From: a virus
Taxonomy: Duplodnaviria > Caudoviricetes
DNA length: 52,946 nt
IMG/VR virus record: IMGVR_UViG_3300042465_001424
Coordinates: 1 to 52,946 of that record
Strand: one strand, 5' to 3'
This document shows positions 12,965 through 48,493 of this stretch, piece by piece. Within the stretch, counting starts at the first letter, position 1. Every line of letters starts with the position of its first letter. The position numbers and the translations under genes were made by a program. The notes beneath the pieces were generated by a model. That model was not told the DNA's origin and did no database searches. It saw nothing but the letters and a program-made list of their open reading frames with translations.

Positions 12965-15364
12965 ATGATTTATACAAATAGTAATAGTTCTTTCCCTAGC
13001 CAGGTGGTACCTGATGAAGAAAAACAAAGTTATGAATATGGTGCTTTAGTTGGCAGAGCTATTGAAAACGAATGGTTTAGAGGAGATCGCGTTGGCGGTG
13101 GAGTTGGAAACCGTTGGGGATCTAACTGGCAAAACTTTCATAGACTTAGACTTTACGCAAGGGGCGAGCAACCTGTACAAAAATATAAAGATGAATTATC
13201 TATAAATGGTGATTTATCATATCTTAATTTAGATTGGAAACCTATTCCTATTATACCTAAATTTGTAGATATTGTCGTTAATGGATTAAGTAATAAGAGT
13301 TATGAGATTAAAGCTTATGCTCAAGATCCTGAAGCAACAAAACAAAAAACAGACTATGCCGCTGGTATATTAAGAGACATGATGGCTAAAGAGTTATTGG
13401 ATGAGATCCAATCAAAATTAGGAGCTAACTTATATAATACGCTTGATCCAAGCAAATTACCAGAGACTACTGAAGAACTTGAAATACATTTGCAATTAGA
13501 TTATAAACAATCTATTGAAATCGCAGAAGAAGAAGTAATTAATCAAATATTAGATACTAATAAATATGATTTAGTTAGTAAAAGGCTAAACTATGATTTA
13601 ACAGTATTAGGTATTGCAGCTGCAAAAACAAATTGGAACCCGGCAAATGGTATTACAATTGACTGGGTAGATCCCGCGACATTAGTTTATTCTTATACAG
13701 AAGATCCAAACTTTGAAGATATTTATTATGTTGGGGAGGTTAAGTCTATTAGTTTAGAAGAATTAAAAAAACAATTTCCACATTTATCTGATGCAGATTT
13801 AAAAGAAATAGAAAAATATCCTGGAGATGTTAATTACACTCGTAATTATTATGGACAGGACCAAAGTGATAATACAGTACAAGTACTTTACTTTGAATAT
13901 AAAACTTATTCAAACCAGGTATTTAAGATTAAACAAACAGAGCAAGGATTAGAGAAAGCATTAGAGAAACCTGATACTTTTAATCCGCCAACAAGTGATA
14001 ACTTTGAAAGAGTATCCAGAACAATTGAGGTATTATATTCAGGAGCAAAGATTTTAGGATTTGAAAAAATGCTAGAATGGAAATTAGCCGAGAATATGAC
14101 TAGGCCCTATGCTGATACTACTAAAGTAGAAATGAATTATGCTATTTGTGCACCTAGAATGTATAAAGGTAAGATTGAATCTTTAGTAAGTAGAATTACT
14201 ACATTTGCCGATATGATTCAGTTAACACATTTAAAACTACAACAAGTACTATCTAGAATGGTGCCAGATGGAGTTTTTGTAGATGTAGATGGCTTAGCGG
14301 AAGTTGATTTAGGGAATGGTACAAATTACAATGCTGCTGAAGCTTTAAATATGTATTTTCAAACTGGTAGTATTGTTGGTAGATCGCAATCGCAAGATGG
14401 CGGAATGAATCCGGGCAAAGTGCCAATTCAAGAATTACAAACATCGTCAGGTAACGCTAAGATAAGTTCTTTAATATCTACTTACCAGTATTACTTACAA
14501 ATGATTCGTGATGTAACCGGATTGAATGAAGCAAGAGATGGTAGTTCACCAGATAGAGACGCGTTAGTAGGATTACAAAAAATGGCTGCCGCAAATTCAA
14601 ATACATCAACTCGTCATATTAAAGACGCTAGTCTATTCTTAACATTAAGAGTATGTGAGAATGTATCCTTAAGGATTAGTGATTCTTTAAACTTTCCTTT
14701 AACAAGACAATCTTTAATTGAAAGTATATCTATATCTAATGTGGAAACACTAAAAGAAATTGTAAACTTAAACTTACATGACTTTGGTATCTTCTTAGAG
14801 TTGGAACCAGAAGATGAAGAAAAAGCGCAGCTAGAACAAAACATACAAATGTCTTTACAGACAGGCAGTATAGATCTAGAGGATGCTATTGATTTAAGAG
14901 AAATTAAAAATCTTAAACTTGCTAATCAATCTTTAAAATATAAAAGAAAGAAAAAACAAGAACAAGTACAAGCAAATCAACAAGCGAATATACAAGCACA
15001 AGCGCAAGCAAACGCTCAAGCATCTGAAGCCGCTGCATTAGCAGAGGTACAAAAGCAACAAGCGTTAGCGCAAACCGAGATTCAAATATTACAATCAAAA
15101 TCTCAATTTGAAATACAAAGAATGCAACAGGAGTTATTGATTGAGAAACAAAAGATGGCTCAGAAGTTTGAGTATGATATGCAACTTGCCCAAGTACAGT
15201 TAGGTATTGCTCAGCAAAAACAAACACAGGCAGAAGATCGTAAAGATCAAAGAACAAAAATACAAGCAACACAACAATCGGAATTAATAGACCAAAGAAA
15301 AAATAATTCTATGCCTAAGGATTTTGAATCTTCTTATGATGATTTATCAGGGTTCGGAATGTAA
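12965..15364 (+). CDS. Portal protein
   Basis: 799 aa after TerL. IPIIPKFVDIVVNG and IRDVTGLNEARDG motifs, long Q-rich C-terminal coiled coil, as in crAss-like/P22-like portals. Confidence 0.85.
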   Translation: MIYTNSNSSFPSQVVPDEEKQSYEYGALVGRAIENEWFRGDRVGGGVGNRWGSNWQNFHRLRLYARGEQPVQKYKDELSINGDLSYLNLDWKPIPIIPKFVDIVVNGLSNKSYEIKAYAQDPEATKQKTDYAAGILRDMMAKELLDEIQSKLGANLYNTLDPSKLPETTEELEIHLQLDYKQSIEIAEEEVINQILDTNKYDLVSKRLNYDLTVLGIAAAKTNWNPANGITIDWVDPATLVYSYTEDPNFEDIYYVGEVKSISLEELKKQFPHLSDADLKEIEKYPGDVNYTRNYYGQDQSDNTVQVLYFEYKTYSNQVFKIKQTEQGLEKALEKPDTFNPPTSDNFERVSRTIEVLYSGAKILGFEKMLEWKLAENMTRPYADTTKVEMNYAICAPRMYKGKIESLVSRITTFADMIQLTHLKLQQVLSRMVPDGVFVDVDGLAEVDLGNGTNYNAAEALNMYFQTGSIVGRSQSQDGGMNPGKVPIQELQTSSGNAKISSLISTYQYYLQMIRDVTGLNEARDGSSPDRDALVGLQKMAAANSNTSTRHIKDASLFLTLRVCENVSLRISDSLNFPLTRQSLIESISISNVETLKEIVNLNLHDFGIFLELEPEDEEKAQLEQNIQMSLQTGSIDLEDAIDLREIKNLKLANQSLKYKRKKKQEQVQANQQANIQAQAQANAQASEAAALAEVQKQQALAQTEIQILQSKSQFEIQRMQQELLIEKQKMAQKFEYDMQLAQVQLGIAQQKQTQAEDRKDQRTKIQATQQSELIDQRKNNSMPKDFESSYDDLSGFGM

Positions 15365-20867: not shown

Positions 20868-23800
20868 ATGGCAGAAGTAAAAAATAGTTTTTTATCGTCT
20901 AAAATGAATAAAGATTTAGACGATAGACTTATCCCTAATAGTGAATATAGAGATGCCTTAAATATAGAAGTAGGTAAATCTGAAACAAATAATATTGGGG
21001 TATTACAAAACGTATATGGGAATGTTAAGATTACATCGGAAACTAATCCAGATTTGGAATGTATCGGTACTTTTATGGATAATGAAAATAATCGTATATT
21101 CCAATTCTTAACGGACTATATTGATCAATTCCCTAATAATATTACATACCCTACATCGGGGACAATGAAAATAGTAGTATATGATTTTGACGATACTTCA
21201 GCATATATAACATTAGTAGATGGTTTATTTTTAAATTTTGCTAAAAACAAACAATTTAAAATAACAGGTGTAAATTTAGTTGAAGGATTATTATTTTGGA
21301 CTGATAATAGAAATCAACCTAGAAAAATAAATGTTAATTTAGCAAATCCTAATAATTTAACAATACCAACATATTATACGACTGAAGAACAAATTTCAGT
21401 TGCAAAATATGCTCCGGTAGATCCTATAACATTATATAGAAAAATAACTGCAACAGTAAATGACGCTAGTTTAAATCCTATTATAGTTTTAGAGGGGGAA
21501 ATTGCTATTGTTCCAGGAATGACAATAATATCAGAAAACATAACTGGAGCAGACTATATAATAGTTACAGATGTTACTATTGATACAATAGCGTCTACAA
21601 CTACAATAACATTATACGAAGCACCTACGGCTACTATAATAAATGGAGAAGAGTTAACCTTTTTAATATCAACTATGTCGGACAAATCAGATGTGCCTTC
21701 ATGGCCTGGTGATCCAGCCTTTTTAGAAGATAAATATGTTCGCTTTAGTTATCGTTTTAAATACGATGATAATGAGTATTCATTAATGGCTCCATTTACA
21801 CAAATAGCTTATATACCAAAACAAAAGGGCTATTTTATTGCGGGGGACGAAACCGATGCATATAGAAGTACTATTGTAAATTGGTTTGAAAACAATATAA
21901 ACAATATTGAATTAATAATACCATTTCCAGATAAAATAAACAATATACTTAATAGTTACAAAATACAAGAGATTGACATTTTATATAAAGAATCAGATTC
22001 TACCGCTATTAAAGTTTTTGAAACAATACCTATTTCTGCTATAAATATATCTAGTAATAATTATTATATACAACCATATCAATCTCAAAAACCATATAAA
22101 ACATTACCAGAAGACCAAACGGTAAGAGTATATGATAAAGTACCCGTTAGAGCAAAGGCGCAGGAGTCCGCTGGGAATAGAATAATTTATGGTAATTATT
22201 TTGATAAATATACTTGTTTATCTTCTATAAATTATAATATGTCGGTTCAAACTAAATCTTCCGTAGGAACTAATTTTATAGAATACCCAAATCATACATT
22301 AAAAAAGAATAGAAATTATCAGGTAGGATTTGTATTGGCTGATAAATTTGGAAGACAATCCCCGGTTATATTATCAACTGTGGATTTAACAAGTACAAAT
22401 ATTGGCGGTGGTAATTTTGCTAAAGGTTCTACAGTATATTCAGGCTATGAAGATACACTTTTGTTTACAGATGTACGATCTTGGTTTGGAGATGCCTTAA
22501 TATTATATTTAAACGCCCCGATAGATCAAGCAAGATCTATTCCAAGTGGTACGCCAGGTTTGTATGCAATAGCAACGTCAAATTCTGGTTTTGCAATTAC
22601 AGCGTCAACAATAACCGATACAATATATAAATATACTTTAGATACAACGGCTACATTAAATACGCCCCCAGCCAATGGTAATATAATGAGGGGCTTTTAT
22701 ACAGATTACGTTAAAGTTTTATCAAATCCAATACCTACAGTAAACCCTAATGAGTACACAATAACTACAAGTGGTAGAGTTGGTGATATATATAAATATG
22801 TGTCTCAAGCAGGAGGCATAAAAGATATTAAATTTGTTTACGAATACAATCCTATTGGTTGGTATTCATATAAAATAGTTGTAAAGCAACAAGAGCAAGA
22901 TTACTATAATGTATATTTGCCCGGTATGTTAAACGGGTATCCTAAAAGCCAAACCTCAGGGTCTCAAGTCGTATATTCAGGCAGTGGAGTTACTGCAACT
23001 TCAACATTAGAAAACGGTATAAATACCACGCAATTTCCAGTAAGTGAAACTGGTAATACATCTCATATTGTATTGATTAATGACAATATTAATAAAGTGC
23101 CTAGAGACTTATCTGAAGTTGGGCCGGATCAAAAACAATATAGAAGTAGCGTTCAATTATATGGGCGTGTTGAAAACGCAGAAGCAAATATTGAAATAAT
23201 AGGATTACCGCCTGCTTATTCAGCAAAAGTAAGAACTATAGAATATAGTACCACAACCGTTGGACAAGGGGATTTTTCATTAATAAAGCCAGGTGATGGT
23301 ATTCAATGTGTTGAGGCTAATACGCCCGCTCCTAATACAGTTTCCGGAACTACTACGGGTGGTACAATGCCTAACCTTTATAGATGGCTAGGTGATACAG
23401 TGGTAGTGTCTAATGTAATTGTAGGAACTATAGGAACTATAACAATATCTTCACCTAACTGGGTATTGCAAGCAGCACAAAATCCAATTCCATCCCCTCA
23501 GCCGGGGAGTGGTGATTATAGAACTTTTATAATTACTAGAGCAGAAAATAGACAATATTTTCCTACTAGGAAAGCAGATACTGTAATATCTATTGCGTCT
23601 GCGGATGAATTTAATTTTTTAGACAGTTCTGAAGATAATTTAAGCGGAACAGCAGGTTTAAATTTTTATCAATTACAAACGAAACCTCTAATAGGTAGAG
23701 TTTCCACCGTTAATAAAATAGGAGTAATTGCTGCTGATATGATACCGTTTTTAGGAGTATATGAAACAAGACCAGAACAGAGTTTATTAGAATTATTTTG

Positions 23801-26087
23801 GGAAACTGCTACAACAGGATTAATATCTGATTTAAACGCAGATGTACTAACTGGTTTTGATGGCCCTTCTAGTTTTGGAGAGTTTGTATATCGTCATTAT
23901 GAAGATCAAAATCCTTTAGGGACAGATTTAGACCCCGCTAATTACGGGGATCCTAATTCAAAATATATAACAAGTGAATTCTACGTATTAGATCAAACCG
24001 GATTTCCTTTGCCGAACACATCTGTTACTATATTATCTGTAAAAGATAACTCTGGGCCTCCTGGTTTAGACAGGTCTGCTGAGTTTGGTCTTGAAACAAT
24101 TATTGGACCGGTTAATAAATTTAAATTAAAAATTCTTTCTAGATTTGTATTTAATAACAATGCAGCTACCGCTGAAAGTTATACTTTTGTGTTTAATGTA
24201 ATAGACTTAGATGACCCTTCTACGGCGACCAAATTAACTATTAACGGCAGACTACGGAATATTGCGCCTGAGATAACAACTACAGAGACGCTTTATAATA
24301 TAACCCAAGATACAACAAGCATTGTAACTTTAGATGCTGTAAACGGAGCGTATTTTGACCCGTTAGGCCCGCCGCCTATTCCTCCAACAGGCGTAAAAAC
24401 AGGATTGTGGTGGACTATAGTTGGGGGTGATACACCTATACCGTCTTTTTATATAGATCCTATTTCAGGTGAATTAGAATTAAGAAACCCTAGCGTATCG
24501 CTTGGTATATATAATTTAGTTATAAAAGTACAGGACGCGGTTAATACTGGCACAGGCGCAATATTGCCGGTTGAAGGAACAGACTTTGGTACAAAATTCA
24601 ATATAAAAACATTTACAATAAATGTTGGAGACGATCCGGTTCCATTTTGGTTAAGACCTAATTACGCAAGTAATATTGTAACAAACCCAATACCTTGTAG
24701 TGGTCCGACTATAGCTCCTCCTGTTTATGGTATGGCTTATATAGGGCCTAATGCTGAAGTAAACTCCGATTATATGCCTGAAATTCCTTTTTCTGGTAAA
24801 ATATATCAATTTGTTGATAATATAGAGGTTAAAAACGCAACTGCTTCTAGCGAGCCATCAGCAATACCTTTAGGATTAAAGAAAGGTGAATATAGATTTA
24901 GCATAGAGTTACAAGTAGGAGCCCCTAGTATTTGCGGTGGATTAGGGTTTGCCACAATTAAAGCAGAAGGTGAAATATATTTATATAAAAGGATATACAC
25001 GCTTGATGGAACAAATCCATGGGTTTTAAGTGCTAATGAAAATAACTATGGAATAACACCCCCTATATATAGAATAGGACCCTTAGTTGTGTCCACTATA
25101 GATGATGGTAGTGGTGGAATAATTTTTGGTCAACCACAAACATTAACAACTTCTTTTACAGTAGAAGCAGACGAATCTATCTTCCCAGCCATTTATGAAT
25201 ATGCAGTAGGGGTTAAATTAATGCAGGAGCGCTCAAATGCTGATCTGGCAAACCCATGGCTTAGAATATATGGCAACGATGCGAATTACAGTTACAACCA
25301 AACATTGCCGTTTACTCCACCAAGACCGCCAATAACAACCGCCTACCCTTTTTATACTGGTATAGCGGAATACAGTATTAACCCTTTAATTCCAGGTGAA
25401 ACTTCTGCCGTTCCTTATACAACACAAGACGCAATACGTGGTACAGATTTTAATTCGCTTATAAACGACGTTAGTTCTGGTACAATATTGCCTTTAGACG
25501 AATCAGTTAAAATTATTTTAACCACAGCTAATGAACAAATTGTGCCAGGTCTGTTTTACACTTTTACTTCTTCAACTATTTCTACATTTAATGGATATGT
25601 TGCTGGAATAAATATTGATAACAATCCTAATAAAATTGCTTTACAATTATTATTCCCTTATAGTGGAAGCGTGCCTGGTGATTTAGCAGGTGGTAATATT
25701 AAGGTTGAAACAGTGCTTCAAACTGATCCTCCGTCGATAGGTGTATTATATGCAAACACAGTAGAAGGAACAGAGATAAAAAGACTGTATACAGATTCTG
25801 CGTTTACTCAAAAATGGATACCGCCTGTGGCAGATAGATTTTATAATTTCCAAACTATTAAAGATTATAACCCTGGCGATGTTACATTTGGTGGTATGAC
25901 ACCATTAAGATACAGTAAATATCCATATTATTGCGCTAAATTTAATGCGTACGGAGAAGTTATAGATCAAATAGCACCTATGCCAAACGTTCAAACATCT
26001 TGGGAGGGACAAAACCCAGAAAATTCAGGACTAATAGTTCCTGTTGAAAATTATAGTTACAACATGTATTATATATCCACACCGTAA
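20868..26087 (+). CDS. Tail stabilisation/muzzle-like protein (N-terminal part) with accessory domains
   Basis: N-terminal KMNKDLDDRL...YRDALNI and LLFWTDNRNQPRKIN as in crAss-like muzzle proteins. Cadherin-like segment near 24250-24620. Confidence 0.7.
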   Translation: MAEVKNSFLSSKMNKDLDDRLIPNSEYRDALNIEVGKSETNNIGVLQNVYGNVKITSETNPDLECIGTFMDNENNRIFQFLTDYIDQFPNNITYPTSGTMKIVVYDFDDTSAYITLVDGLFLNFAKNKQFKITGVNLVEGLLFWTDNRNQPRKINVNLANPNNLTIPTYYTTEEQISVAKYAPVDPITLYRKITATVNDASLNPIIVLEGEIAIVPGMTIISENITGADYIIVTDVTIDTIASTTTITLYEAPTATIINGEELTFLISTMSDKSDVPSWPGDPAFLEDKYVRFSYRFKYDDNEYSLMAPFTQIAYIPKQKGYFIAGDETDAYRSTIVNWFENNINNIELIIPFPDKINNILNSYKIQEIDILYKESDSTAIKVFETIPISAINISSNNYYIQPYQSQKPYKTLPEDQTVRVYDKVPVRAKAQESAGNRIIYGNYFDKYTCLSSINYNMSVQTKSSVGTNFIEYPNHTLKKNRNYQVGFVLADKFGRQSPVILSTVDLTSTNIGGGNFAKGSTVYSGYEDTLLFTDVRSWFGDALILYLNAPIDQARSIPSGTPGLYAIATSNSGFAITASTITDTIYKYTLDTTATLNTPPANGNIMRGFYTDYVKVLSNPIPTVNPNEYTITTSGRVGDIYKYVSQAGGIKDIKFVYEYNPIGWYSYKIVVKQQEQDYYNVYLPGMLNGYPKSQTSGSQVVYSGSGVTATSTLENGINTTQFPVSETGNTSHIVLINDNINKVPRDLSEVGPDQKQYRSSVQLYGRVENAEANIEIIGLPPAYSAKVRTIEYSTTTVGQGDFSLIKPGDGIQCVEANTPAPNTVSGTTTGGTMPNLYRWLGDTVVVSNVIVGTIGTITISSPNWVLQAAQNPIPSPQPGSGDYRTFIITRAENRQYFPTRKADTVISIASADEFNFLDSSEDNLSGTAGLNFYQLQTKPLIGRVSTVNKIGVIAADMIPFLGVYETRPEQSLLELFWETATTGLISDLNADVLTGFDGPSSFGEFVYRHYEDQNPLGTDLDPANYGDPNSKYITSEFYVLDQTGFPLPNTSVTILSVKDNSGPPGLDRSAEFGLETIIGPVNKFKLKILSRFVFNNNAATAESYTFVFNVIDLDDPSTATKLTINGRLRNIAPEITTTETLYNITQDTTSIVTLDAVNGAYFDPLGPPPIPPTGVKTGLWWTIVGGDTPIPSFYIDPISGELELRNPSVSLGIYNLVIKVQDAVNTGTGAILPVEGTDFGTKFNIKTFTINVGDDPVPFWLRPNYASNIVTNPIPCSGPTIAPPVYGMAYIGPNAEVNSDYMPEIPFSGKIYQFVDNIEVKNATASSEPSAIPLGLKKGEYRFSIELQVGAPSICGGLGFATIKAEGEIYLYKRIYTLDGTNPWVLSANENNYGITPPIYRIGPLVVSTIDDGSGGIIFGQPQTLTTSFTVEADESIFPAIYEYAVGVKLMQERSNADLANPWLRIYGNDANYSYNQTLPFTPPRPPITTAYPFYTGIAEYSINPLIPGETSAVPYTTQDAIRGTDFNSLINDVSSGTILPLDESVKIILTTANEQIVPGLFYTFTSSTISTFNGYVAGINIDNNPNKIALQLLFPYSGSVPGDLAGGNIKVETVLQTDPPSIGVLYANTVEGTEIKRLYTDSAFTQKWIPPVADRFYNFQTIKDYNPGDVTFGGMTPLRYSKYPYYCAKFNAYGEVIDQIAPMPNVQTSWEGQNPENSGLIVPVENYSYNMYYISTP

Positions 26088-26135: not shown

Positions 26136-27686
26136 ATGGCTGCAATATTAGAATTAAAATACTTTAACTCTTTTTGGTTAAAGAAACTCGATACAATAGT
26201 AGAGGTAGAAAATACTAAAGGTATTTTAGACGTTGCGGCTAGTGGTACAACTATAGTCTTGACTGAGGATAATGTAAACATAGGGGTAGGGCAAACTGTT
26301 TCTTGGGTTGTCCCCGCTCCGTTGCCAAATCCATTCCCAACAGTTTATAAAAAAATTAACGATCATGAATTTATATTAAGTGAATCAGTAACAATTGATG
26401 ATGCCACAGAATTATCATTCGGTCCAATACAAGATTTTACATACATACCTGCTGCATATGAACCGGGATTAACAGATTGGTATATAGAAGAAGCTAGAAT
26501 ACGCGGGGGATACAATAATACAAACGTAGATCTTGGTGTTAAAGCTTATATTGTTGAAGATAATATTAATCAGCAGCATAGAAAAAGTTCTTTAATATAT
26601 TCCGGAGTATTTAATTCTAGAACTGGAGTAAACAATACAAATCAATTTTCAGTTGGTGAAGATATAACTAGAAGTGTAGATCCATCTGTTGGATCAATAC
26701 AAAAATTATATGCTGAAGACACAAACTTAATTATATTCCAAGAAGCTAAAGTCAGTAGAGCATTGATTGATAAAGATGCAATTTATTCAGCGGAGGGTCA
26801 AGCGATGACTACTTCCGGCGCAATGGTTATTGGTCAAATTCAACAGTATGCTGGTAATTATGGTATAAGCACTAATCCGGAAAGCTTTGCTGTTTATGGG
26901 TATAGAAAATATTTTGTAGATAAAAACCAAGGTTCTGTATTAAGATTATCCCAAGATGGTATAACTGAAATATCAGCATATGGAATGTTAGATTACTTTA
27001 GAGATAATTTATCATCAATTGGTAGTTCTGGTAGTGTAGTTGGTGGATGGGATATGTATAACAAGCAATATGTTTTATCATTGCAACCGCCTAATACAGT
27101 GGAATATCAAACATTGTCATTTGATGAAGATTGTACAGGTTGGACAAGTAGATTTTCATTTAAACCGGATTTATCAGGAAGTTTAAGAAATAACTTTTAT
27201 ACTTTTAAACAAGGTAATATATGGAAACATTATGCTGATCCAGCTACAACCGGTATAAACTATTGCCAATTTTATGATAATCCAATACCATATGACGCAA
27301 CAGTTACTTTAATATTTAATCCTGAGGTTTCAATGTCTAAAAACTTTAATACATTGAATTACGAAGGATCCTCGGGATGGGCCTTAACAGAGTTGTATTC
27401 AAATTCTGATATAGCCACCCAAATCTTTAAATCATCAAATGCATTGACGTTAGCGGAAATAGAAAATCAATTGTTTACAAACAATTTCAAAAGAAAAGAA
27501 AACAAATATTTTGGTACTATTATAAATATAACCCCTCCAACATATGGTGAAGTTATTTATGGTAATTCAATGAATGGAATAAAAGGGTTTTACTCTACAG
27601 TTAAAATGGTGTTTGTAAATCCTTTAACGCCAACCGCTGCAGAATTATATTCTGTATCATCAAATTATGTAATGTCTTCATATTAA
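26136..27686 (+). CDS. Tail stabilisation/muzzle-like protein (C-terminal beta-propeller part)
   Basis: GSIQKL, YGISTNPESFA, YFVDK...VLRLSQDGITEIS, GWTSRFSF motifs. Confidence 0.65.
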   Translation: MAAILELKYFNSFWLKKLDTIVEVENTKGILDVAASGTTIVLTEDNVNIGVGQTVSWVVPAPLPNPFPTVYKKINDHEFILSESVTIDDATELSFGPIQDFTYIPAAYEPGLTDWYIEEARIRGGYNNTNVDLGVKAYIVEDNINQQHRKSSLIYSGVFNSRTGVNNTNQFSVGEDITRSVDPSVGSIQKLYAEDTNLIIFQEAKVSRALIDKDAIYSAEGQAMTTSGAMVIGQIQQYAGNYGISTNPESFAVYGYRKYFVDKNQGSVLRLSQDGITEISAYGMLDYFRDNLSSIGSSGSVVGGWDMYNKQYVLSLQPPNTVEYQTLSFDEDCTGWTSRFSFKPDLSGSLRNNFYTFKQGNIWKHYADPATTGINYCQFYDNPIPYDATVTLIFNPEVSMSKNFNTLNYEGSSGWALTELYSNSDIATQIFKSSNALTLAEIENQLFTNNFKRKENKYFGTIINITPPTYGEVIYGNSMNGIKGFYSTVKMVFVNPLTPTAAELYSVSSNYVMSSY

Positions 27687-30413: not shown

Positions 30414-33400
30414 ATGCCTATATATACTTATAATGGAGCAATGTTTACGGAAGAAGAAGTAATTAGTAAAGCAGAAGCAAAAGGGCTTGATCTGGAAGCT
30501 TATATTAATAAATTTGGTATAACTAAAGAGGAAGATGAAACCGTTGAGGAGCCGGGAAAGCCAAAACCTGTTGCAAAAAAGGGTGCGCCTGCAACAGCAA
30601 AAGGTACGGCGTCCAAATTGGTAAAACCTTCATCGGAGTTAAAATCTGATATATGGGGAGAAGACAGATCTAAACCTGAATTTTTACAAGAAATACAAAA
30701 AGTATCTCAACCCGATATAAAGTTTCCAAAACCTGTTAGTGTTAAAAAACCAAAACAAGAATTAAAATCTATATCTGAATACCAATCAAAAGTAAAAAAA
30801 GAAGAAGAAAGCGGGTTTTCTAATTTTCTTAAAGAATCATTTGATTCCGGAATTTCTACAATTGTGCAATCTGTTTATAAAGCTCCTGAGTTTTTATATG
30901 ATGCCACTGCTGCATTTATTACAGATCCTATTGCTAATTTAGCAAATGATATTATAGGGGTTGAAAGACAAGATTCTTCTTCGGAAAAAATAATGGAAAC
31001 ATTCGGAATTAAAAACATTCCGGCAGATATTTTACAAAAAAGAATTAAGGAATCAAATAAAATAATACAAGATTATAGTGCTAAAAACGGGGTTGATCCT
31101 TTAACTGCTATAGAGAATGGAAACTATTTAGGAGCAGCAAAACTAGTTGCAGGCGGAACAATTCAATCAGTTCCTATGATGGCGGCAGCTATGTTTAGTG
31201 GTGGAAGTTCAACTGCATTAGCTGGAATATCTGCATCTACAGCAATTTCAAAAGCGGAACAATTAAAAATAGAACAACCTGAAATGGACGTTCAAACTAG
31301 AACTATAAATGCCGCGGCGTCTGGATTGCTGGAAGGATATTTAGGCAATTTATTTACAGGTGCTTCTGGAGCAGTTGTAAAAAGAATATTAACTGATAAA
31401 GGAACTAAAGAAGGGGCAAAAGTTATTTCTAATGGCTTAATGAGTACATTAGAAAAAGCCATTGAAAAAAACCCAATGATTGGTGTACTTGGCGAGGTTG
31501 CTGAAGAAAGTAGTGTTGAATTAGGCAATCAATTAAATGATATAAATTCTGGAATTAGAAAAGAATTAGATTATAGATCAATTACTAATGCCGGTATTAT
31601 TGCAACAGGAATGGCTGGTACAAATACTGTGCCTGTATATGGGGCAAAAGGTTATATGAAAATGGCTGAATATAATCAAGTAAAAGCCATAAACAAAGAA
31701 ATTAATACCTTAACAAATCAATTATCTAATCCTTATATTAATGATTCAGATAAAAAAATAATTTCATCGCGAGTTAATAGACTTGTTGATGAGAATAAAA
31801 CTATTGTAGGAACTAGTCTGGAAAAAATTAAAGCATTACCTGAAAATATAAAAACAGAAATAAATACTATTAATGCAGATTTAGATGATATTAAAAGTAA
31901 ATATTTAGACTTAGCAGACAATGACGCCATACCGTTGGATGTTAAAGCAGCAATGGGTGAAGAATTAAAACTTCAAGGTAAACAATTATATGATAGAAAA
32001 AATAGTATCATTGAAGGTAATTATATATATGAAGACTTTAATAAATTACCAACTGAAGAACAAATTAGAATTAAAGATGTAGCAACTCAAAACTTAGTAG
32101 CAGATTCTGAATTAACTGGTAAACCAAAAACTAGTTTTGCCGATGAAGAAATAAATAAAGAAGCCGTAACTATATATAATAATGAAGTAAAAGCAAAAGA
32201 TTTTGTTTCTGATGTAGAAAAAACAAAAGTTGCTATACAAGCTATTGGTCTTGGTGAAGATGTAGAAATGCCTGAATTAAATTCTGCTAATGATGTTATT
32301 AATTATCTATCAACTAATACTACATTAGACAAGAATACTATAGAAGACGTTGCAGATTCTTATGGTGCATTTATTCCTTTGCCAAATGGTAAAGAAGTAT
32401 TAATTATAAATAAAGAAGCTGCTAACATGGATCAGGTGGTTACAACCGGTCAACATGAATTTTTACATAAACTTATATACAAGGCGGTAAAAGATAATAC
32501 AGATTTACAAAAACAAATAGGGTCTCAATTATATAATCACATTGAGAACTATATTGGTACAGAAGAATTTAATAATACTGAATTTAAAAGTAGATACGAT
32601 GCTTATAAGAATGATTTTGAAAATACTAAATTAGAATTAGATAGTAAAGTAACTAAAGCTAAAGACTTTTTTAATAAAGGACTTATAACTCAAGAAAGAT
32701 ACGACCAAGCCGTAACAGACGCGGATAATGCAACCGCTAAAGCTGAAGGTAAATATCTAGAAGAAACATTGCCATTATTGTCTGAATCATTATCAAAAGG
32801 AGACATAAAATATAATGAAACATTCTTTACTAAAATAGGTGATATATTACGTAGAGTATTCCAAAAATATGGACTAAGCAAAGTAAAGTTTAATACGGGT
32901 AAAGATGTGTTTGATTTTGTTAGAGACTATAATAAAAGTTTTGAAAAAGGTCAATTTACTAAAGCGTTTAAGGCGTTAGCGAAAGAAGGCGTTTATAAAG
33001 GATCTATAGCAAAAGGTAACATTCCAGCAAAGCCAACCGCCAAACCAGAAGTTAAATTATCTAAAATACAAATTGATAAACTTAAACAAGATTTAGTTGA
33101 TTTAGAAGATGAATACGACGAAGGCTACGGAGATATTGATGAGGAAGAATATAAGAATAGAAAAGCCAATATAGAAGGTAAACTTAAAACGGCCGTTAAA
33201 TTAGAAGAAAAAGGTGTTCCTGTTAAGGAAGTGAAAAAAGAAGTAACTGAAGAAGATGAGGTTAAAGAAATAATAAAAAATGCTCGTGGTTCAATATCTT
33301 CAGATAAAGTACAACAAATATATGAATCTAAAGGCGTAAATGGTTCAGCAGAAATAATAAGACTATTTGAGCCTATAACTAAAAAGATTGTTGACAAGCG

Positions 33401-36400
33401 TAGAGATGCTCCGGGTTTTGATAGAGAATTATTAACTGACGAGATAAATACAGGAGTTGGTGGAATTTTAGATTTAATAACTAAATATAAACCTGAATCT
33501 GGTATACCATTAGCTGCTTATATAAATAAGTATTTGCCAGTTAGAGCAATTGCTACTTCAAAAAGAATATTAGATCAACAATTTAATAAGGACGCATCGG
33601 AAGAAAAGGGGCTAATAGCAACTGAGACAGCTGATCAAAACTTTATTGAAACAACAAAAGAAAAACCAAAGTATAAGAATGCATTAGAGTCAAAAGTTTT
33701 TGAACCGGAAGTCTTAAAAACTATAAACGATAAGATATTAACAGTAGTTAGAACTTTAAAATCTAAAATTGATGAGCCTATTTCATTGAATAAAACTATT
33801 ACCCCATTAATTGCTGAAATTAGAGACGAAATTGGTAAGCAAGTTGATATTGATGTTAAAACCGCAATGGGCGGCAAAAAAGACAATCAATTAAAAAATT
33901 GGATGTTAAAGAACAAAAAATATGTTCTTGAAAATATGACTACTACTTGGTTAATGGGTAAAGATGGTCAAGGAGGAATGCCGATTGCGGTTCAAAAACA
34001 AATTGACGGAAGATGGGTTAATTTTCCTGAATGGGCTGGTAAAAAAATTGATAGAGAAAAAACAACTACAGATCAAGCTGGTAGAACTTCTGGCGCTGAA
34101 TTAACTAGAAGATTGCCAAGTGTTAATAATAATATATCTGATGCTGATTACTTAGAACAAGTAATAGGGACTGATGGTAATCCTTTACGTGGCAGAAAAG
34201 AATCATTAGCAAAAGCAATAGCTGAAGAATCGACATTTGATATTATTAATGATGATTTGCAAAATGATGGGCCTATTTCAGAAGCTTTAATAAAGAATCA
34301 GGAAAGACTTGGGGTTCAATTAACAAACAATATTACTAATGAATTTGCAAAGCAAACAGAAAGAGGTAACATTAAATTCTCTAAATCTTTAATAAAAGGA
34401 ATATCTATATCTCAAGATAAGTTAGGCAAAGATATATTCAACGCTAAAACAATTGAAGATGAAGCAAAGGTAATAAGTAAATGGATTGCCAGCGATGGTA
34501 GATCATTAAGAACTTTTGCAGCCATGATTGGTAAACAATTAAGCAAATTAAAAACTAATAAAGGGTTATTTGAAAATATAATATTACCAACAATAAAAAC
34601 TTATTCAAAGTTTGAAGGGTTAGTTGGTAAAGACTCTTATAGATTAGGAGAGGTTTCAAGAGGTATATCTATATTCTTTGGGGAAGAAAAAGTGCCTTTA
34701 TGGAAAGACATTGATGAGATAAAAAATAATTGGGGAAGAAGCGCTCCTATAATGGAGAAGGAAGCAATAAGCGCAAATGATCAATTGTTTGATATAATTA
34801 ATTACTTTAAAAATAACAATTATTCCAATGAAGATTTTGAAGGGTATTTACAATTTTTACGAAAAGATCAAAGAGGCTTAATACGAAAACTTTCAAAACC
34901 GGGTATTGCTGTTATAGGTTTAAATAAAAAACAAAAGCCATACTTAGAGCATAATATGCCGGTACAAAATATTGTTGAAAAAATTCTTGATTTTTATGAC
35001 AATAAAATTACAGAAGATCAATTAAGAGAATTTATTGATAAAGGAAAAGTAAACCTTATTCCAGATGAATTAAATAAACTTTTACCAAATTATGAAGTTG
35101 ATAAAAACAGAATGGAAGACCCAACTGTTTTATTATATTTACAAAATTTATTAGATAAAGGTTTATCTATTTATAATATAAAAGCGGAATATGGATCTAA
35201 AGCTAACTTCAATGCGTTAGTTAAAATTGCTCAATCAAAAGTAAATTCAAAAGAAAATTTACAAAATATATATAATACTATTGCAATAGAAAATTCTTTA
35301 GATGTTAAAAAATCTATTAACCCAAAAGGTATTTCGGTATTTGATTTCGATGACACCGTTGGCATGACTAAAAGTAACGTGTTATACGCGATGCCAGATG
35401 GCACTTTTGGTAAATTAAATGCGGAAGAATTTGCAAAAGAAGGTTCTAATATGCTACAAGAAGGAGCTATATTTGATTTCTCTGAATTTAGCAAAGTTGT
35501 TAATGGCAAACCAGGTCCAATGGTTGAAAAGATGAAGAAGATGATTGGCAAGTTTGGTCCTGAAAACTTCTTTATACTCACGGCTCGCCCTGCTAATGCC
35601 GCGGGTCCAATACATGAGTTTTTATCTTCTATTGGTATTGATATACCTTTAGAAAATATAACTGGCTTAGGAAGCAGTTTAGCGCAATCAAAAGCAGATT
35701 GGATGACAGCGAAAGCAGCAGAAGGATATAATGATTTTTACTTTTCCGACGATGCAATCCAGAATGTTGATGCTGTTAGAAATGCTTTAAACGTTCTTGA
35801 CGTTAAATCAAAAATACAGCAAGCTAAAATTAAATTTAGTAAAACTATATCGCCTGAATTCAATAAGATTATTGAGGAGAATAAAGGTATGGAGCACTAT
35901 AAAGTGTTCTCGGATATTGTTGCAAGAAGAAGAGGTAAGTCTAAAAACAAGTTTGATTTTTATGTTCCACCATCTGCTGCTGATTTTGAATTATTATTGT
36001 ATAACTTCTTAGGTAAAGGTGAACGTGGAGAAGAACATCAAAAATTCTTTAACGAAGCATTACTTAAACCGTATGCAAATGGTAATGATTTGATGGATGC
36101 GGCAAGACAATCTATTAAGAAAGATTATAAAGCATTGTTAGATTCATTCCCAGACATACGTAAGAAAATGGAAACATTAACTCCAGACGGAGATTATACT
36201 TACGATCAAGCAATACGTATTGCAATGTGGAACGAAGAAGGCGTTGAAATACCTGGTATATCCGAAAGAGATTCAAGAAAATTAACAGATTTGGTAAACA
36301 ATGATCCTGAGCTAGCTGCGTTCAAACAAGGCTTAATAGTTACTGGCAGACAAGGTAAAGGATGGATTAACCCTACTGAATACTGGGACGCAAATACTAT

Positions 36401-38075
36401 CATTGCGGATCTACATGGTTTAACAGAAGGTGAAGGACGTAAGAAATTCCTTGCTGAGTTTATTGACAATGCTGAACAAATGTTTGGAACATGGTCTCAA
36501 GGAAAATTGGTTGGCCCTAACATTAACAAAGTAGAAGCCGTATATGGTTCGAATGTAAGAGAAGCTATTGAAGATGTACTGTACAGAATGACAACTGGTA
36601 AAAACAGAAGCCAAGGCAAGGATAAAGAAACAAGCGCTTGGAGTAATTGGGTGAATGGTTCTACTGGAGCTATTATGTTCTTAAACACTAGATCTGCCGC
36701 ATTGCAATTAATTGGGGCAGTCAATTTCTTAAACTTAAGAGATAATAATCCTTTTAACGCTGGTAAAGCATTTCTAAATCAACCGCAATATTGGAAAGAT
36801 TTCTCACGTATTTGGAATTCAGATAAAATGAAAGAAAGACGCGGTGGATTAAAAGAAGATGTTGCCGCTGCTGAGATTGCAAATGCCGCCGCGGGTAGTA
36901 AAAATAAACCTGCTGCTGTTATAGCTTACTTATTAAAAATCGGTTATACGCCGACGCAATTAGCAGATAGTTTTGCTATTGCCTCTGGGGGTGCTCCATT
37001 TTATAGAAATAGAATTAAATCTTATTTGAAAGAAGGATTAACAGAACAAGAGGCGGAAGATGCGGCTTGGAATGATTTTACAAAAGTATCAGATGAAACA
37101 CAACAATCAGGTGATCCTAGAGATATATCAAAACAACAAGCGAGTGGAGCGGGAAGGTTATTATTAACATTCCAAAACACGGCAATGCAACAATCTAGAA
37201 TTGTTAAAAAATCTTATTTAGATCTAAGAGCTGGTAGAGGTAATGCTAAAACACATATTTCAAAAATAGTATATTATTTGGCAGTACAAAATACATTGTT
37301 TGCTGTGTTGCAACAAGGATTATTTGCGGTTGCCTTTGATGATGATGATGAAGAAAAAGATACAGAAAAAGAAAAAGTCAAAAAGAAAACAACTAATGAA
37401 AGATTAATAGATGTCGCTGACGGTGTGTTGGATACAATATTAAGAGGAACCGGATTTGCTGGAGGAGTTGTTTCTGTATTAAAGAACATGACTAAAAAAT
37501 ACCTCGACGAAAAAGATAAAAACTTTAAAGCAGATTATGCTAAAGTTGTATTAGAAGGGGCTAACATATCACCGCCAATTGGATCTAAACTTAGAAAAGT
37601 ATATACTGGACTTCAACAAACTAAATTTGAAAAAGACCTTATAGACGCAAGAGGTTGGGGTGTTATGCAAGATGGAAGAGTTCATTTAGGGCCAATGTAT
37701 GGAGTGGCTGGAAAACTTGCTGAAGCAACAACTAACTTGCCAATTGATAGGCTTGTAAACAAAATTGAAAATATATCTCAAGCAATGAATTCTGAAAATC
37801 AAGCATGGCAAAGAGTTGCTGTAGGAGTTGGGTTTACACCTTATTCAGTTGGTATAGAAGAATCAAAAGGTGATGTAGAAATTAGAGCAAAAGCAAAAGA
37901 AATACGTAAAGAAGAAGGATTAATAAAAAGCGAAGAAACAAGAGAACGTAAAAAAGATTCTATTAGAGCTTTACCAATTAGGGAACGCATTAGAATAAAA
38001 AGAGAGGATAGACTTAAAAGAAGAGAAAACGAATTTAAACGCAGGGAAAGAAAAGCAAATAGAAAAATGGGTTAA
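30414..38075 (+). CDS. Giant polyvalent internal virion protein (zincin, sigma-70 region-2-like and HAD phosphatase domains)
   Basis: 2553 aa. HEFLH at aa 681, sigma2-like segment at aa ~981-1046, HAD motifs DFDDT (aa 1644), ILTAR, K, FSDD. Last gene of the virion module. Confidence 0.7.
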   Translation: MPIYTYNGAMFTEEEVISKAEAKGLDLEAYINKFGITKEEDETVEEPGKPKPVAKKGAPATAKGTASKLVKPSSELKSDIWGEDRSKPEFLQEIQKVSQPDIKFPKPVSVKKPKQELKSISEYQSKVKKEEESGFSNFLKESFDSGISTIVQSVYKAPEFLYDATAAFITDPIANLANDIIGVERQDSSSEKIMETFGIKNIPADILQKRIKESNKIIQDYSAKNGVDPLTAIENGNYLGAAKLVAGGTIQSVPMMAAAMFSGGSSTALAGISASTAISKAEQLKIEQPEMDVQTRTINAAASGLLEGYLGNLFTGASGAVVKRILTDKGTKEGAKVISNGLMSTLEKAIEKNPMIGVLGEVAEESSVELGNQLNDINSGIRKELDYRSITNAGIIATGMAGTNTVPVYGAKGYMKMAEYNQVKAINKEINTLTNQLSNPYINDSDKKIISSRVNRLVDENKTIVGTSLEKIKALPENIKTEINTINADLDDIKSKYLDLADNDAIPLDVKAAMGEELKLQGKQLYDRKNSIIEGNYIYEDFNKLPTEEQIRIKDVATQNLVADSELTGKPKTSFADEEINKEAVTIYNNEVKAKDFVSDVEKTKVAIQAIGLGEDVEMPELNSANDVINYLSTNTTLDKNTIEDVADSYGAFIPLPNGKEVLIINKEAANMDQVVTTGQHEFLHKLIYKAVKDNTDLQKQIGSQLYNHIENYIGTEEFNNTEFKSRYDAYKNDFENTKLELDSKVTKAKDFFNKGLITQERYDQAVTDADNATAKAEGKYLEETLPLLSESLSKGDIKYNETFFTKIGDILRRVFQKYGLSKVKFNTGKDVFDFVRDYNKSFEKGQFTKAFKALAKEGVYKGSIAKGNIPAKPTAKPEVKLSKIQIDKLKQDLVDLEDEYDEGYGDIDEEEYKNRKANIEGKLKTAVKLEEKGVPVKEVKKEVTEEDEVKEIIKNARGSISSDKVQQIYESKGVNGSAEIIRLFEPITKKIVDKRRDAPGFDRELLTDEINTGVGGILDLITKYKPESGIPLAAYINKYLPVRAIATSKRILDQQFNKDASEEKGLIATETADQNFIETTKEKPKYKNALESKVFEPEVLKTINDKILTVVRTLKSKIDEPISLNKTITPLIAEIRDEIGKQVDIDVKTAMGGKKDNQLKNWMLKNKKYVLENMTTTWLMGKDGQGGMPIAVQKQIDGRWVNFPEWAGKKIDREKTTTDQAGRTSGAELTRRLPSVNNNISDADYLEQVIGTDGNPLRGRKESLAKAIAEESTFDIINDDLQNDGPISEALIKNQERLGVQLTNNITNEFAKQTERGNIKFSKSLIKGISISQDKLGKDIFNAKTIEDEAKVISKWIASDGRSLRTFAAMIGKQLSKLKTNKGLFENIILPTIKTYSKFEGLVGKDSYRLGEVSRGISIFFGEEKVPLWKDIDEIKNNWGRSAPIMEKEAISANDQLFDIINYFKNNNYSNEDFEGYLQFLRKDQRGLIRKLSKPGIAVIGLNKKQKPYLEHNMPVQNIVEKILDFYDNKITEDQLREFIDKGKVNLIPDELNKLLPNYEVDKNRMEDPTVLLYLQNLLDKGLSIYNIKAEYGSKANFNALVKIAQSKVNSKENLQNIYNTIAIENSLDVKKSINPKGISVFDFDDTVGMTKSNVLYAMPDGTFGKLNAEEFAKEGSNMLQEGAIFDFSEFSKVVNGKPGPMVEKMKKMIGKFGPENFFILTARPANAAGPIHEFLSSIGIDIPLENITGLGSSLAQSKADWMTAKAAEGYNDFYFSDDAIQNVDAVRNALNVLDVKSKIQQAKIKFSKTISPEFNKIIEENKGMEHYKVFSDIVARRRGKSKNKFDFYVPPSAADFELLLYNFLGKGERGEEHQKFFNEALLKPYANGNDLMDAARQSIKKDYKALLDSFPDIRKKMETLTPDGDYTYDQAIRIAMWNEEGVEIPGISERDSRKLTDLVNNDPELAAFKQGLIVTGRQGKGWINPTEYWDANTIIADLHGLTEGEGRKKFLAEFIDNAEQMFGTWSQGKLVGPNINKVEAVYGSNVREAIEDVLYRMTTGKNRSQGKDKETSAWSNWVNGSTGAIMFLNTRSAALQLIGAVNFLNLRDNNPFNAGKAFLNQPQYWKDFSRIWNSDKMKERRGGLKEDVAAAEIANAAAGSKNKPAAVIAYLLKIGYTPTQLADSFAIASGGAPFYRNRIKSYLKEGLTEQEAEDAAWNDFTKVSDETQQSGDPRDISKQQASGAGRLLLTFQNTAMQQSRIVKKSYLDLRAGRGNAKTHISKIVYYLAVQNTLFAVLQQGLFAVAFDDDDEEKDTEKEKVKKKTTNERLIDVADGVLDTILRGTGFAGGVVSVLKNMTKKYLDEKDKNFKADYAKVVLEGANISPPIGSKLRKVYTGLQQTKFEKDLIDARGWGVMQDGRVHLGPMYGVAGKLAEATTNLPIDRLVNKIENISQAMNSENQAWQRVAVGVGFTPYSVGIEESKGDVEIRAKAKEIRKEEGLIKSEETRERKKDSIRALPIRERIRIKREDRLKRRENEFKRRERKANRKMG

Positions 38076-47728: not shown

Positions 47729-48493
47729 TTATAGGTAATCAAGGACTTGAGAGGGTTCTACGTTGTCAATTAACTTTTTAATTGCTTGTTTTTTTATCTC
47801 TGAAATTCTTACATAAGCGCTTGCCCCTTCGATACCTAATTTATCCGCTATCTCATTTGCCGAATACTTATCACAGTCTAATCCATAACTTAATCTTAAT
47901 ACTTCATACTCACGTTCATTTAAGTGTTTAGTCAATAGACTCTTTAAATATAAATTCATAAGGTTTATATTATAAGGCTCAGTTTGATCCGGAATTTGAT
48001 AAAGCATGTTATCTTCGTCGTCATCATTAATCTGTTCATCGATGCTTAAGAATATGGAATTAAAAAACATTGCAACCATCGTATGGTCTTTGCCATTATC
48101 TTTTCTAATTTCATTTAGTTTATGTTCTGGAATCTTAATTGAGCCTCTATTAATATCAATAGCACGTCTAATTGAGCCTTTAATTCTTTTTGATAGAAAC
48201 GACTTAATAGTTTTTTCTTGATCAGTAGAAGCGTTTAATGTATCCCATTCAATTTTATCAACAGCTAGTATTAACCCCATAGATCCATGTTGCATAAGAT
48301 CCGTAATATCTAGTACTCCGCACGCTTGGGTTGTAGTTGAAAACTTCTTTGCAATATTCTCTACCAAAGGTAAAAACTTAGCAATAAGCCGGTCCCTTGG
48401 GTATGATTGAAAATCATTATTTAAACTATCTTTATTAGTTTGTTTAATATCTTCTTTGTATCTAATGTAATTTGGTATATTGTAACTTTTCAT
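47729..48493 (-). CDS. RNA polymerase sigma-70-family factor
   Basis: Region 2 (LPLVENIAKK...DLMQHGSMGLILAVDK...RIKGSIRRAI) and region 4 (LNEREYEVLRLSYGL...EIADKLG...RISEIKKQAIKKL). Confidence 0.9.
   Translation of the reverse strand: MKSYNIPNYIRYKEDIKQTNKDSLNNDFQSYPRDRLIAKFLPLVENIAKKFSTTTQACGVLDITDLMQHGSMGLILAVDKIEWDTLNASTDQEKTIKSFLSKRIKGSIRRAIDINRGSIKIPEHKLNEIRKDNGKDHTMVAMFFNSIFLSIDEQINDDDEDNMLYQIPDQTEPYNINLMNLYLKSLLTKHLNEREYEVLRLSYGLDCDKYSANEIADKLGIEGASAYVRISEIKKQAIKKLIDNVEPSQVLDYL

Follow-up and report, generated by a model that had tools for sequence, protein, structure and literature searches.

Conserved K-x-S-K joints in a modular giant phage protein: points of cassette exchange and possible processing sites

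Does a short peptide that recurs along a very large phage protein mark sites at which the chain is cut, or joints at which its domains are exchanged? This question is raised by P0001, a giant open reading frame (ORF) of an uncultured phage of marine type, 2553 amino acids (aa) long, in the IMG/VR virus record IMGVR_UViG_3300042465_001424 (Duplodnaviria; Caudoviricetes), of which positions 1 to 52,946 form the whole stretch of DNA analysed here (the window). In the original prediction, recurring [VI]K[FLK]S linkers downstream of a zincin-type HExxH motif were read as cleavage sites or cassette junctions of a possibly self-cleaving polyprotein. The motif positions given there hold exactly, namely HEFLH at aa 681, VKLSK at 880, IKFSK at 1320, VKKSI at 1631, and IKFSK at 1806, and the span 32454-35843 extends from the first His codon of HEFLH through the last Lys codon of IKFSK-1806; a fifth match to [VI]K[FLK]S, at aa 2264, was absent from that list. 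Comparison with relatives shows, at the level of sequence, a modular giant protein with a portable K-x-S-K joint, in which cassettes have been exchanged at two or three of the joints. The reading of these joints that we favour, namely that P0001 is a polyvalent ejection protein whose junction motifs serve as processing sites, most likely for its own metallopeptidase, is held tentatively, at slightly less than an even chance.

The comparison draws on a large family. A word-index search with P0001 (8000 scored candidates) retrieved 1465 proteins at E <= 0.001, the relatives being 1400-4400 aa long, and a profile search with the zincin region across 1.84 billion representatives yielded 1151 clusters at 50% identity, the matches listed being solely family members. 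The analysis also covered 168 loci on viral contigs. Among GenBank phages (50,697 records), where the family has no homologue, blastn and tblastn gave no match to whole P0001, and a query composed of the HAD domain and the C-terminal module gave one weak HAD match only. By terminase comparison, 87 records match (best MW202828.1, 64%), and the nearest are podoviruses (~60-78 kb) of Flavobacterium, Cellulophaga, Tenacibaculum, and Maribacter. Flavobacterium phage elemoA and MW202828.1 each have a giant protein with HExxH at the corresponding genome position, the former a 'structural protein' of 3694 aa with HEIFH (L170:16564-27648) and the latter an ORF of 3859 aa with two HEFGH (L001:741-12320); these show no significant similarity to P0001 (best E 0.46) and no recurring junction motif.

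Homology breakpoints were located by BLASTP of P0001 against 157 other non-identical family proteins. Internal ends of high-scoring segment pairs (HSPs) fall at aa 1320-1329 (51/157), at 1320-1349 (73/157), and at 1810-1819 (15/157), and internal HSP starts at aa 1610-1639 (34/240) and 1770-1819 (46/240). Between aa 830 and 1310, no breakpoint bin holds two or more events, so that site 880 is not a swap point. As far as these alignments tell, homology breaks exactly at 1320 and 1806 and loosely at 1631, where the swap boundary ahead of the HAD domain is fuzzy (aa 1580-1640), and does not break at 880; the proposal of cassette junctions is thereby upheld for two of the four motifs, loosely for a third, and not for the first.

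The region exchanged is a slot that extends from an R-G-N anchor just before site 1320 to the C-terminal module, and it measures 98-1004 aa in 146 proteins (12/158 proteins without an anchor were dropped). Cut at the motif, the slots give 185 pieces of at least 50 aa, which form 22 clusters (at least 70% mutual coverage) in 26 architectures. The same piece recurs behind different partners, as expected if the segments between motifs are swapped as units: a ~185-aa piece with a DUF6934 match and the HAD-only piece each have four different preceding partners, and a 363-aa piece has two, whereas no such exchange is seen at 880. Domain X, the segment between motifs 2 and 3, is replaced by unrelated pieces in relatives. 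Furthermore, inserted cassettes are flanked on both sides by the same tail, as in the order HAD-…QQARLKFSLT-DUF6934 piece-…QQAKIKFSKT-C module, and the joint tail of aa 1788-1811 also closes two other unrelated cassettes. From aa ~1790 onward, P0049, P0056, and P0080 share 93-94% identity with P0001, as against 33-57% before it; on alignment evidence, these identity jumps show recent exchange.

Among relatives of the HAD domain and C-terminal module, P0183 and P0192 carry Zeta_toxin/AAA_33-type P-loop kinase cassettes, and three BFVD rows (A0A218MLT5, A0A6J5MBE6, and A0A6J5KPZ7) name domains in relatives as cytidylyltransferase-like or dCMP deaminase. 'Stand-alone' proteins made of HAD and C module were considered as natural splits at the motif and rejected, being in the DNA mostly miscalled starts or cut contigs; in L050, for instance, the ORF stays open upstream of the called start. 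In 102/108 further viral loci with HAD and C module, HAD lies >1000 aa inside a giant ORF, with the C module following at the ORF end. In one viral contig, L044 (~13360-13750), there is a frame change ~10 residues before HAD, plus a ~100-aa insertion inside HAD; the frame change could be a sequencing error or a natural split and, as a single case, is given no weight as evidence.

Within P0001, [VI]K[FLK]S has 5 matches against 0.47 expected (at least 5 in 0/2000 shuffles), and 7 repeated 5-mers are found against 4.2±2.2 in 300 shuffles, which is not significant. This single sequence proves nothing, because the expression was written post hoc and exact repeated 5-mers are ordinary; the motif signal is clearly comparative and rests on the relatives. 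The strict pattern [VI]K[FYW]S[KQ] has 177 matches among 253 giant proteins, none identical to another (701,027 aa in all), and by the 40 residues upstream these matches sort into 15 unrelated groups. Scrambling the order of the residue classes served as control: for 40 of the 119 scrambled orders, an average of 8.75 matches fell in 2.65 contexts, and no order reached more than 7 contexts. An independent set, of 96 long representatives, gave 47 strict matches, in 34 proteins, against a scrambled mean of 2.7 (all 119 orders), and the one high scrambled order in that set (51) is accounted for by the conserved block around aa 2264. Elsewhere in the window, 30 ORFs (12,000 aa) have four matches to a looser expression, and the K-x-S-K form is absent from all of them.

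Site-by-site counts give the same picture of a maintained peptide. At site 1320, in the 167 of the 253 relatives that have the [EDQ]RGN anchor (the 86 without it being excluded), the residues after the anchor are [VI] in 162, K in 165, S in 158, and K in 105; R1317, G1318, and N1319 are each 36/36 in the alignment and end a core with dense invariant columns. At site 1806, counted in the 198 relatives with a downstream FNxII anchor (55/253 lack it and are left out), K is found in 158, F in 163, S in 162, and K in 139, and V1788, L1792, Q1802, and Q1803 of the joint aa 1788-1811 are all 36/36. Site 880 is an island in a gap-rich stretch, with K881 at 26/36, S883 at 35/36, and K884 at 28/36 and the other columns at <=10/36. 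The family consensus at site 1631 is K-[FY]-S-K, 4-5 residues before the first HAD strand (S1634 27/31, K at 1635 26/31), and a K-x-S-K-type motif stands <=45 residues upstream of HAD in 87/199 relatives. All four junction sites are conserved in the family, with Ser the best conserved residue at each, although the window's VKKSI is, by alignment, a degenerate copy of the family K-[FY]-S-K. The match at aa 2264 is not a junction: it is embedded in a strongly conserved block, LLTFQNTAMQQSRIVKK[SA], its Ser is often Ala, and it has no breakpoints.

Selection on the motif can be placed by its codons. Of the distinct codon strings (43 at 1320 and 39 at 1806), nearly all encode serine by TCN at the former site and by AGY at the latter, so the two IKFSK copies are not recent duplicates of each other, and the K, F, and S codons at the motifs vary synonymously. 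Synonymous diversity, expressed as effective codons, is 1.96 in the joint 1788-1811, much as in its flanks, where the HAD core has 2.12 and the module that follows 2.06. Judged from these patterns, the junction motif is maintained by selection on protein, not DNA. Nucleotide-level explanations (a slippery site or an internal start) were dropped, since the motif varies at the residue level while its codons vary in this silent manner.

Two AlphaFold models built from alignments of relatives place the motifs relative to the folded parts, one covering aa 640-1330 (mean predicted local distance difference test score, pLDDT, 69) and the other aa 1300-1900 (mean pLDDT 72). In the former, pLDDT is <50 for aa 855-884 and 1317-1330; in the latter, a domain at ~1330-1610 is confident (pLDDT blocks 85-94), and values of <50 are found at 1627-1635 and 1780-1812, flanking the HAD domain at 1639-1777. 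All four motifs are thus in predicted low-confidence stretches between better-folded parts of the models, and the joint 1788-1811 is strongly conserved despite pLDDT <50.

The identity of the modules that the joints separate varies in firmness. In the zincin-like module, H681, E682, H685, and E784 do not vary in either of two alignments, of 36 and 19 relatives, and HExxH is present in 248/253 and 96/96 relatives. In the AlphaFold model, HExxH lies on a predicted helix (aa 678-692) with two short strands ahead of it, and Glu 784, also helical, may be the third zinc ligand. The label 'zincin' is supported by the invariant HExxH and distal Glu, but no family or fold match to a metallopeptidase was obtained, as detailed below.

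The HAD label of the segment 1631-1806 was borne out, and the presence of a HAD-superfamily phosphatase domain is confirmed. All 50 fold matches listed for aa 1634-1788 are HAD-fold proteins, nearly all of them phosphatases, at middling Z values (5.0-7.8); the best match listed is the Nir2 C-terminal domain (Z 7.8, root-mean-square deviation (rmsd) 2.9, 96 aligned), and the T4 Pnkp phosphatase domain (Z 6.7, rmsd 2.9, 106 aligned) and Pnkp1 (Z 6.9) are also listed. The four catalytic motifs are conserved, with D1644 37/38, D1646 36/38, and T1648 34/38 in DxDxT, T1723 36/36 for the S/T motif, K1760 36/36, and D1779 34/36 and D1780 36/36 in DD. Pfam gave no HAD match in the parts of P0001. Relatives pair this domain with P-loop kinase cassettes; a Pnkp-like role would be a reasonable reading.

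The sigma-like label fits a smaller part of the chain than the whole of 880-1320 to which it had been applied, namely aa ~955-1055 at most. This helical region of the model aligns with region 2 of SigB (8x6g_H; VIA-align Z 7.5, rmsd 2.6, 86 aligned), and 8 of the best 50 fold matches listed there are sigma factors or pro-sigma, including besides SigB pro-sigmaK, sigma28, sigma32, RpoS, sigmaS, a plastid PEP chain, and a T4 late-transcription chain; these Z values are middling, and helical folds with Z under 8 may share a common arrangement. Pfam sigma families, including Sigma70_r2, match 0/36 members at E <= 1. The model-based resemblance is thus a lead, not family membership. The phage has a separate sigma factor gene at window positions 47729-48493 (-), with Sigma70_r2 and r4, and hhalign of the helical domain against this sigma gives a probability of 0.2, that is, no relation.

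The remaining modules drew blanks in the searches made. For the core, aa 1056-1319, no known fold appears among the matches listed, where long helices fill the list of the multi-domain model. The segment that the original prediction had left without an assignment stays without one in that no known fold was found for aa 1330-1610 (domain X), with confident folding (pLDDT ~90); the searches with the whole 601-residue model were dominated by HAD and barely tested domain X. Foldseek against the PDB returned nothing at E <= 0.001 for either AlphaFold model, profile searches of both alignments against PDB sequences returned no matches, and the ESM Atlas gave nothing named for aa 640-1325. For the C-terminal module, Pfam has no match in the window copy and weak or terminal matches, mainly to DUF5763, in 5/39 relatives; an ESM Atlas lead from this module to LPD38, LPD39, and DUF5763 went unconfirmed by Pfam on 40 C-modules and was set aside. 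The C-termini of L054 and L067 and aa 3342-3369 of P0349 hold a short Cys-rich DUF5763 element (…C..K…C…YCYYHD), which is absent from the window protein.

On the reading that we favour, the gene product would be an internal virion protein of the polyvalent, ejection type, made by a podovirus of ~60-66 kb whose relatives are flavobacterial phages. Its chain would comprise, in order, an N-terminal part, the zincin-like module, the sigma-2-like domain with the conserved core, the cassette slot, and the C-terminal module; the slot would hold between one and four enzyme cassettes that can be exchanged, in P0001 domain X and a HAD phosphatase of Pnkp-like type, and the modules would be joined by hydrophobic-K-x-S-K, most often [VI]K[FY]SK. 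The chain would be cut at the motif, most likely by its own metallopeptidase module, inside the capsid or after ejection. Cutting would free the sigma-like, phosphatase, and other modules as separate proteins, and individual effectors would be released after ejection, as originally proposed; the shared joint would also permit in-frame cassette swaps by recombination.

Several observations point to an ejection-type protein, including the position of P0001 as the last gene of the structural block, the giant HExxH proteins found at the same position in other phages, and its composition. P0001 has 0 cysteines in 2553 residues, against 20.5 expected from the other 29 ORFs of the window, and 233/253 relatives are likewise cysteine-free, which would fit a protein that travels unfolded and works beyond the reducing cytoplasm. 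Besides a run of acidic residues and a basic tail, the C-terminal module has two hydrophobic helices, at aa 2289-2307 and 2338-2356. Gene position, lack of cysteine, and hydrophobic helices are indirect signs that P0001 may be packaged in the virion and delivered to the host. Processing itself is supported by the occurrence of the motif in unrelated contexts, the conserved linker islands, protein-level selection, accessibility, and module exchange, as well as by the confinement of the motif to P0001 within the window and the constant company of a candidate protease (HExxH).

A good deal, however, weighs against processing, and above all the present evidence fits a cut site and an uncut hinge alike. 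Burial of the motifs, which the original prediction had named as grounds for refutation, is not what the models suggest for inter-domain stretches of low confidence, but IKFSK-1320 starts a helix at pLDDT 57-72 in the model of aa 1300-1900. The peptide is neither universal nor fixed: just 34/96 long representatives of the wider family have the strict motif, as against HExxH in 96/96; the x position of site 1320 is F in 93, Y in 18, Q in 15, R in 11, and others in the rest of the 167; and in about ten relatives LAFFNS stands in place of the 1806 motif, with HExxH retained. Residue x shows no co-variation between sites 1320 and 1806, the latter keeping F in proteins that have Y, R, Q, S, A, L, or H as the x of site 1320. 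Site 880 is, by alignment, conserved yet never a swap point. Additionally, the zincin assignment of the presumed protease is based on HExxH and one Glu in sequence: for the zincin region, Pfam matches 0/36 members and no PDB sequence of a metallopeptidase is matched, no zincin is among the best 50 fold matches listed for the 691-residue multi-domain model, and hhalign of the zincin alignment against the peptidase region of the N4 virion RNA polymerase gives a probability of 0.8 and E 0.071, with the strand-loop-HExxH stretch aligned. The more specific proposition that hydrophobic-K-[FY]-S-K is the recognition code of an in-chain metallopeptidase in the polyvalent ejection proteins of a large uncultured phage family is less likely than not.

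The strongest competitor, which we regard as possible though short of probable, is that K-x-S-K and the 24-aa tail before the C-terminal module form an uncut hinge and recombination joint, the protein acting as one chain. The joints would then be flexible connectors, perhaps helix caps or docking strands, for example for threading through the tail, and cassettes would be inserted or lost in frame by homologous recombination because the joints are shared. The same tail brackets cassettes on both sides, as recombination between repeats would leave it, and the mosaic identity of P0049, P0056, and P0080 described above is of the same kind; predicted helices begin at the motif at 884 and 1320, the fused form prevails (102/108 loci), and the N4 virion polymerase gp50, which has a zincin-like region, is packaged unprocessed according to the accessible text of PMC5512222, a precedent for an uncut chain that also speaks against processing. 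What an uncut hinge does not readily explain is a joint without extra DNA-level conservation, IKFSK copies that use different Ser codon families and are not recent duplicates, K and S kept at 158-165/167 in otherwise free sequence where a plain hinge would have no need of them, and a motif at 880 that is kept without cassette exchange.

Cleavage by another protease, whether a prohead/maturation or a host enzyme, is a sub-case that is counted within the processing reading and is by itself unlikely. The HExxH module would then be aimed elsewhere, for example at the cell wall or host proteins, and the cutting would resemble the head-protease trimming of ejection proteins in T4-like and giant phages. 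It is consistent with the zincin fold being unproven here, with the cutting of SPN3US head and ejection proteins at a defined motif by gp245 (accessible text of PMC10052503), and with the cell-wall role that the phi24B preprint (bioRxiv 10.64898/2026.04.10.717836), in its accessible part, assigns to the metallopeptidase of a 2811-aa packaged polyvalent protein. No protease family was found, however, among the other ORFs of the window, which covers ~53 kb of a ~60-66 kb genome and is not the whole of it, so that a protease gene could lie outside; moreover, head proteases usually trim the portal, capsid-type, and other virion proteins as well, and none of these carries the motif here.

A further view, which we consider quite unlikely, takes the conserved Ser as a modification site (phosphorylation or similar) or the motif as a docking element for portal, scaffold, or chaperone, whose copies along the uncut chain would anchor or regulate it. 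Ser is indeed the best conserved residue at all four sites, and P0183 and P0192 have P-loop kinase cassettes (Zeta_toxin/AAA_33), but those kinase families act, as far as annotated, on nucleotides or sugars rather than proteins, the motif has no known partner, and homology breaks exactly at the motif would be left unexplained. Autoproteolysis in cis at X-Ser by an upstream fold, of the Nup98 HFS type, was set aside, the upstream contexts being unrelated. That a tetrapeptide rich in lysine recurs by chance in a long protein of like composition, for which one might cite the after-the-fact expression, the common repeated 5-mers (7 observed against 4.2±2.2 expected), and the match at 2264 unrelated to junctions, is highly improbable and already contradicted by the coincidence of motif positions with homology breakpoints, by an enrichment that spans 15 independent contexts where scrambled orders average 2.65 and reach 7 at most, and by conservation over hundreds of relatives.

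The layout of P0001 is given in Table 1. Around aa 240-330, the variable N-terminal part includes a Gly/Ala/Ser-rich stretch. Searches of whole P0001 against Pfam, PHROGs, and PDB sequences returned no matches, and nothing rose above threshold when six parts were searched with Pfam and five with PADLOC. The virion-structural block upstream of P0001 includes a terminase (10742-12961) and a portal (12965-15364), as well as 'virion structural proteins' of capsid and ring type and a muzzle-like protein that matches crAss_MUZ_C; beyond the giant ORF come replication genes on the opposite strand. Two adjacent ORFs on the plus strand, 20868-26087 (1739 aa) and 26136-27686 (516 aa), match different parts of the 1474-position PHROG 14478, the second carrying the crAss muzzle C-terminal domain, which suggests a muzzle-like tail protein that is split or extended. 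The window also encodes a GroEL-type chaperonin at 5216-6760 (+) (PHROG 5725, E 6e-129; Pfam Cpn60_TCP1), and no tRNA or tmRNA genes were found in positions 1-52946. Its GC content is ~0.29-0.37, and GC skew changes sign at ~38 kb, where gene orientation flips.

Table 1. Layout of the giant ORF P0001 in the window (nucleotide positions are those of the window; aa positions are those of P0001)
Feature	Residues (aa)	Window positions	Strand	Remarks
Giant ORF (P0001)	2553 aa	30414..38075	+	Closes the virion-structural gene block
N-terminal part	1-595	30414..32198	+	First ~45-120 aa conserved, remainder variable (HSP breakpoints ~60-140 and 380-660)
Zincin-like module	596-860	32199..32993	+	HEFLH aa 681-685 (nt 32454-32468) and invariant Glu 784 (nt 32763-32765)
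Motif 1, VKLSK	880-884	33051..33065	+	End of a variable, predicted-disordered stretch, aa 855-884
Helical domain, sigma-region-2-like fold	~955-1055	33276..33578	+	From structural comparison of the model
Core	~1056-1319	33579..34370	+	Highest conservation in P0001; ends in invariant R-G-N
Motif 2, IKFSK	1320-1324	34371..34385	+	Sharpest module boundary
Exchangeable domain X	~1330-1610	34401..35243	+	Alpha/beta, confident fold prediction
Motif 3, VKKSI	1631-1635	35304..35318	+	4 residues ahead of the first HAD strand
HAD-superfamily phosphatase domain	1639-1787	35328..35774	+	Fold comparison and catalytic motifs
Conserved 24-aa joint	1788-1811	35775..35846	+	Includes motif 4, IKFSK, aa 1806-1810 (nt 35829-35843)
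C-terminal module	1812-2553	35847..38072	+	Segment most widely shared across the family
Fifth match to the expression, IVKKS	2264	37203..37214	+	Conserved block, no junction

For the idea that zincin-like modules process their own chains, the family supplies exact residues, four sites in P0001, together with natural controls, namely the relatives with LAFFNS in place of KFSK and the site at 880 that is kept without cassette exchange. If cutting takes place there, one could predict where injected effectors begin and end in an abundant uncultured group of aquatic phages. Should the motif indeed be a recognition code, it would be the first defined cleavage consensus for polyvalent ejection proteins, and the mature injected proteins could be read from sequence in >1000 clusters at 50% identity; the sigma-region-2-like domain could redirect host RNA polymerase, the Pnkp-like phosphatase could undo an RNA-damaging defence, and the joints would let effector cassettes dock in frame and be exchanged within one gene in an integron-like manner. 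If the chain stays uncut, the motif would still clearly exemplify how a conserved joint supports the shuffling of cassettes, in frame, within a single gene.

Known systems offer partial likenesses. Viral polyproteins hold protease and substrates in one chain, with a short consensus cut at domain borders, and P0001 would be alike if the cleavage reading is right; unlike them, it is a protein of a dsDNA tailed phage, and its modules are accessory effectors rather than a replication or capsid set. Head-protease trimming at a consensus motif is represented by T4 gp21 and phiKZ-type sites. In Salmonella phage SPN3US, as described in the accessible text of PMC10052503, the prohead protease gp245 trims head and ejection proteins at a consensus motif, and several copies of a short cleavage motif define the mature fragments of internal virion proteins, in likeness to the motifs of P0001; the difference is that SPN3US has a separate head protease and the motif in many head proteins, whereas P0001 has the motif in one protein and no separate protease was found in the window.

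Phage phi24B gp47 is, according to the available part of the preprint (bioRxiv 10.64898/2026.04.10.717836), a 2811-aa virion-packaged polyvalent protein with LPD5, LPD1, LPD38, and a MuF-C metallopeptidase. It is, like P0001, a giant HExxH-type podovirus protein, present in virions, not in the reconstruction, and proposed as an ejection protein; it differs in its other domains, in a peptidase proposed to act against the cell wall, and in that no junction motif is described in that part, the likeness being one of description. Packaged giant proteins with a zincin-like region, as proposed for P0001, are also represented by N4 gp50 and phage P1 DdrB, the latter being processed before packaging, in the accessible text of PMC5512222; unlike N4 gp50, P0001 has no polymerase module that was found.

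The closest frame of reference is the polyvalent proteins of Iyer, Burroughs, Anand, de Souza, and Aravind (2017; PMC5512222), for which, in the accessible text, autoprocessing by their own zincin-like peptidases was proposed. Like these, P0001 is a very large phage polypeptide with an HExxH module and varying unrelated domains, and delivery with DNA and self-processing were proposed for them as they are here for P0001. The resemblance extends to size (2553 aa, in a phage structural block) and to domain combination, with a HAD phosphatase here, 22 clusters in 26 architectures across the family, and relatives with DUF6934, kinase, cytidylyltransferase-like, or deaminase-named domains. Unlike them, P0001 matches none of the Pfam families given in the accessible text of PMC5512222, the MPTase-PolyVal and LPD Pfam models having no match in P0001, whether whole or as six parts, in 36 zincin regions, in 40 C-modules, or in 17+16 whole relatives. 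In the literature searched, no paper was found that defines cleavage sites for polyvalent-protein peptidases, and the accessible portions of PMC7077304 and PMC8776804 contain nothing on a protein of the P0001 type. The polyvalent proteins in the accessible text of PMC5512222 come without a defined cleavage or junction motif; the novelty of the present case lies in a defined junction peptide, a defined cassette slot, and a large uncultured family in which both occur.

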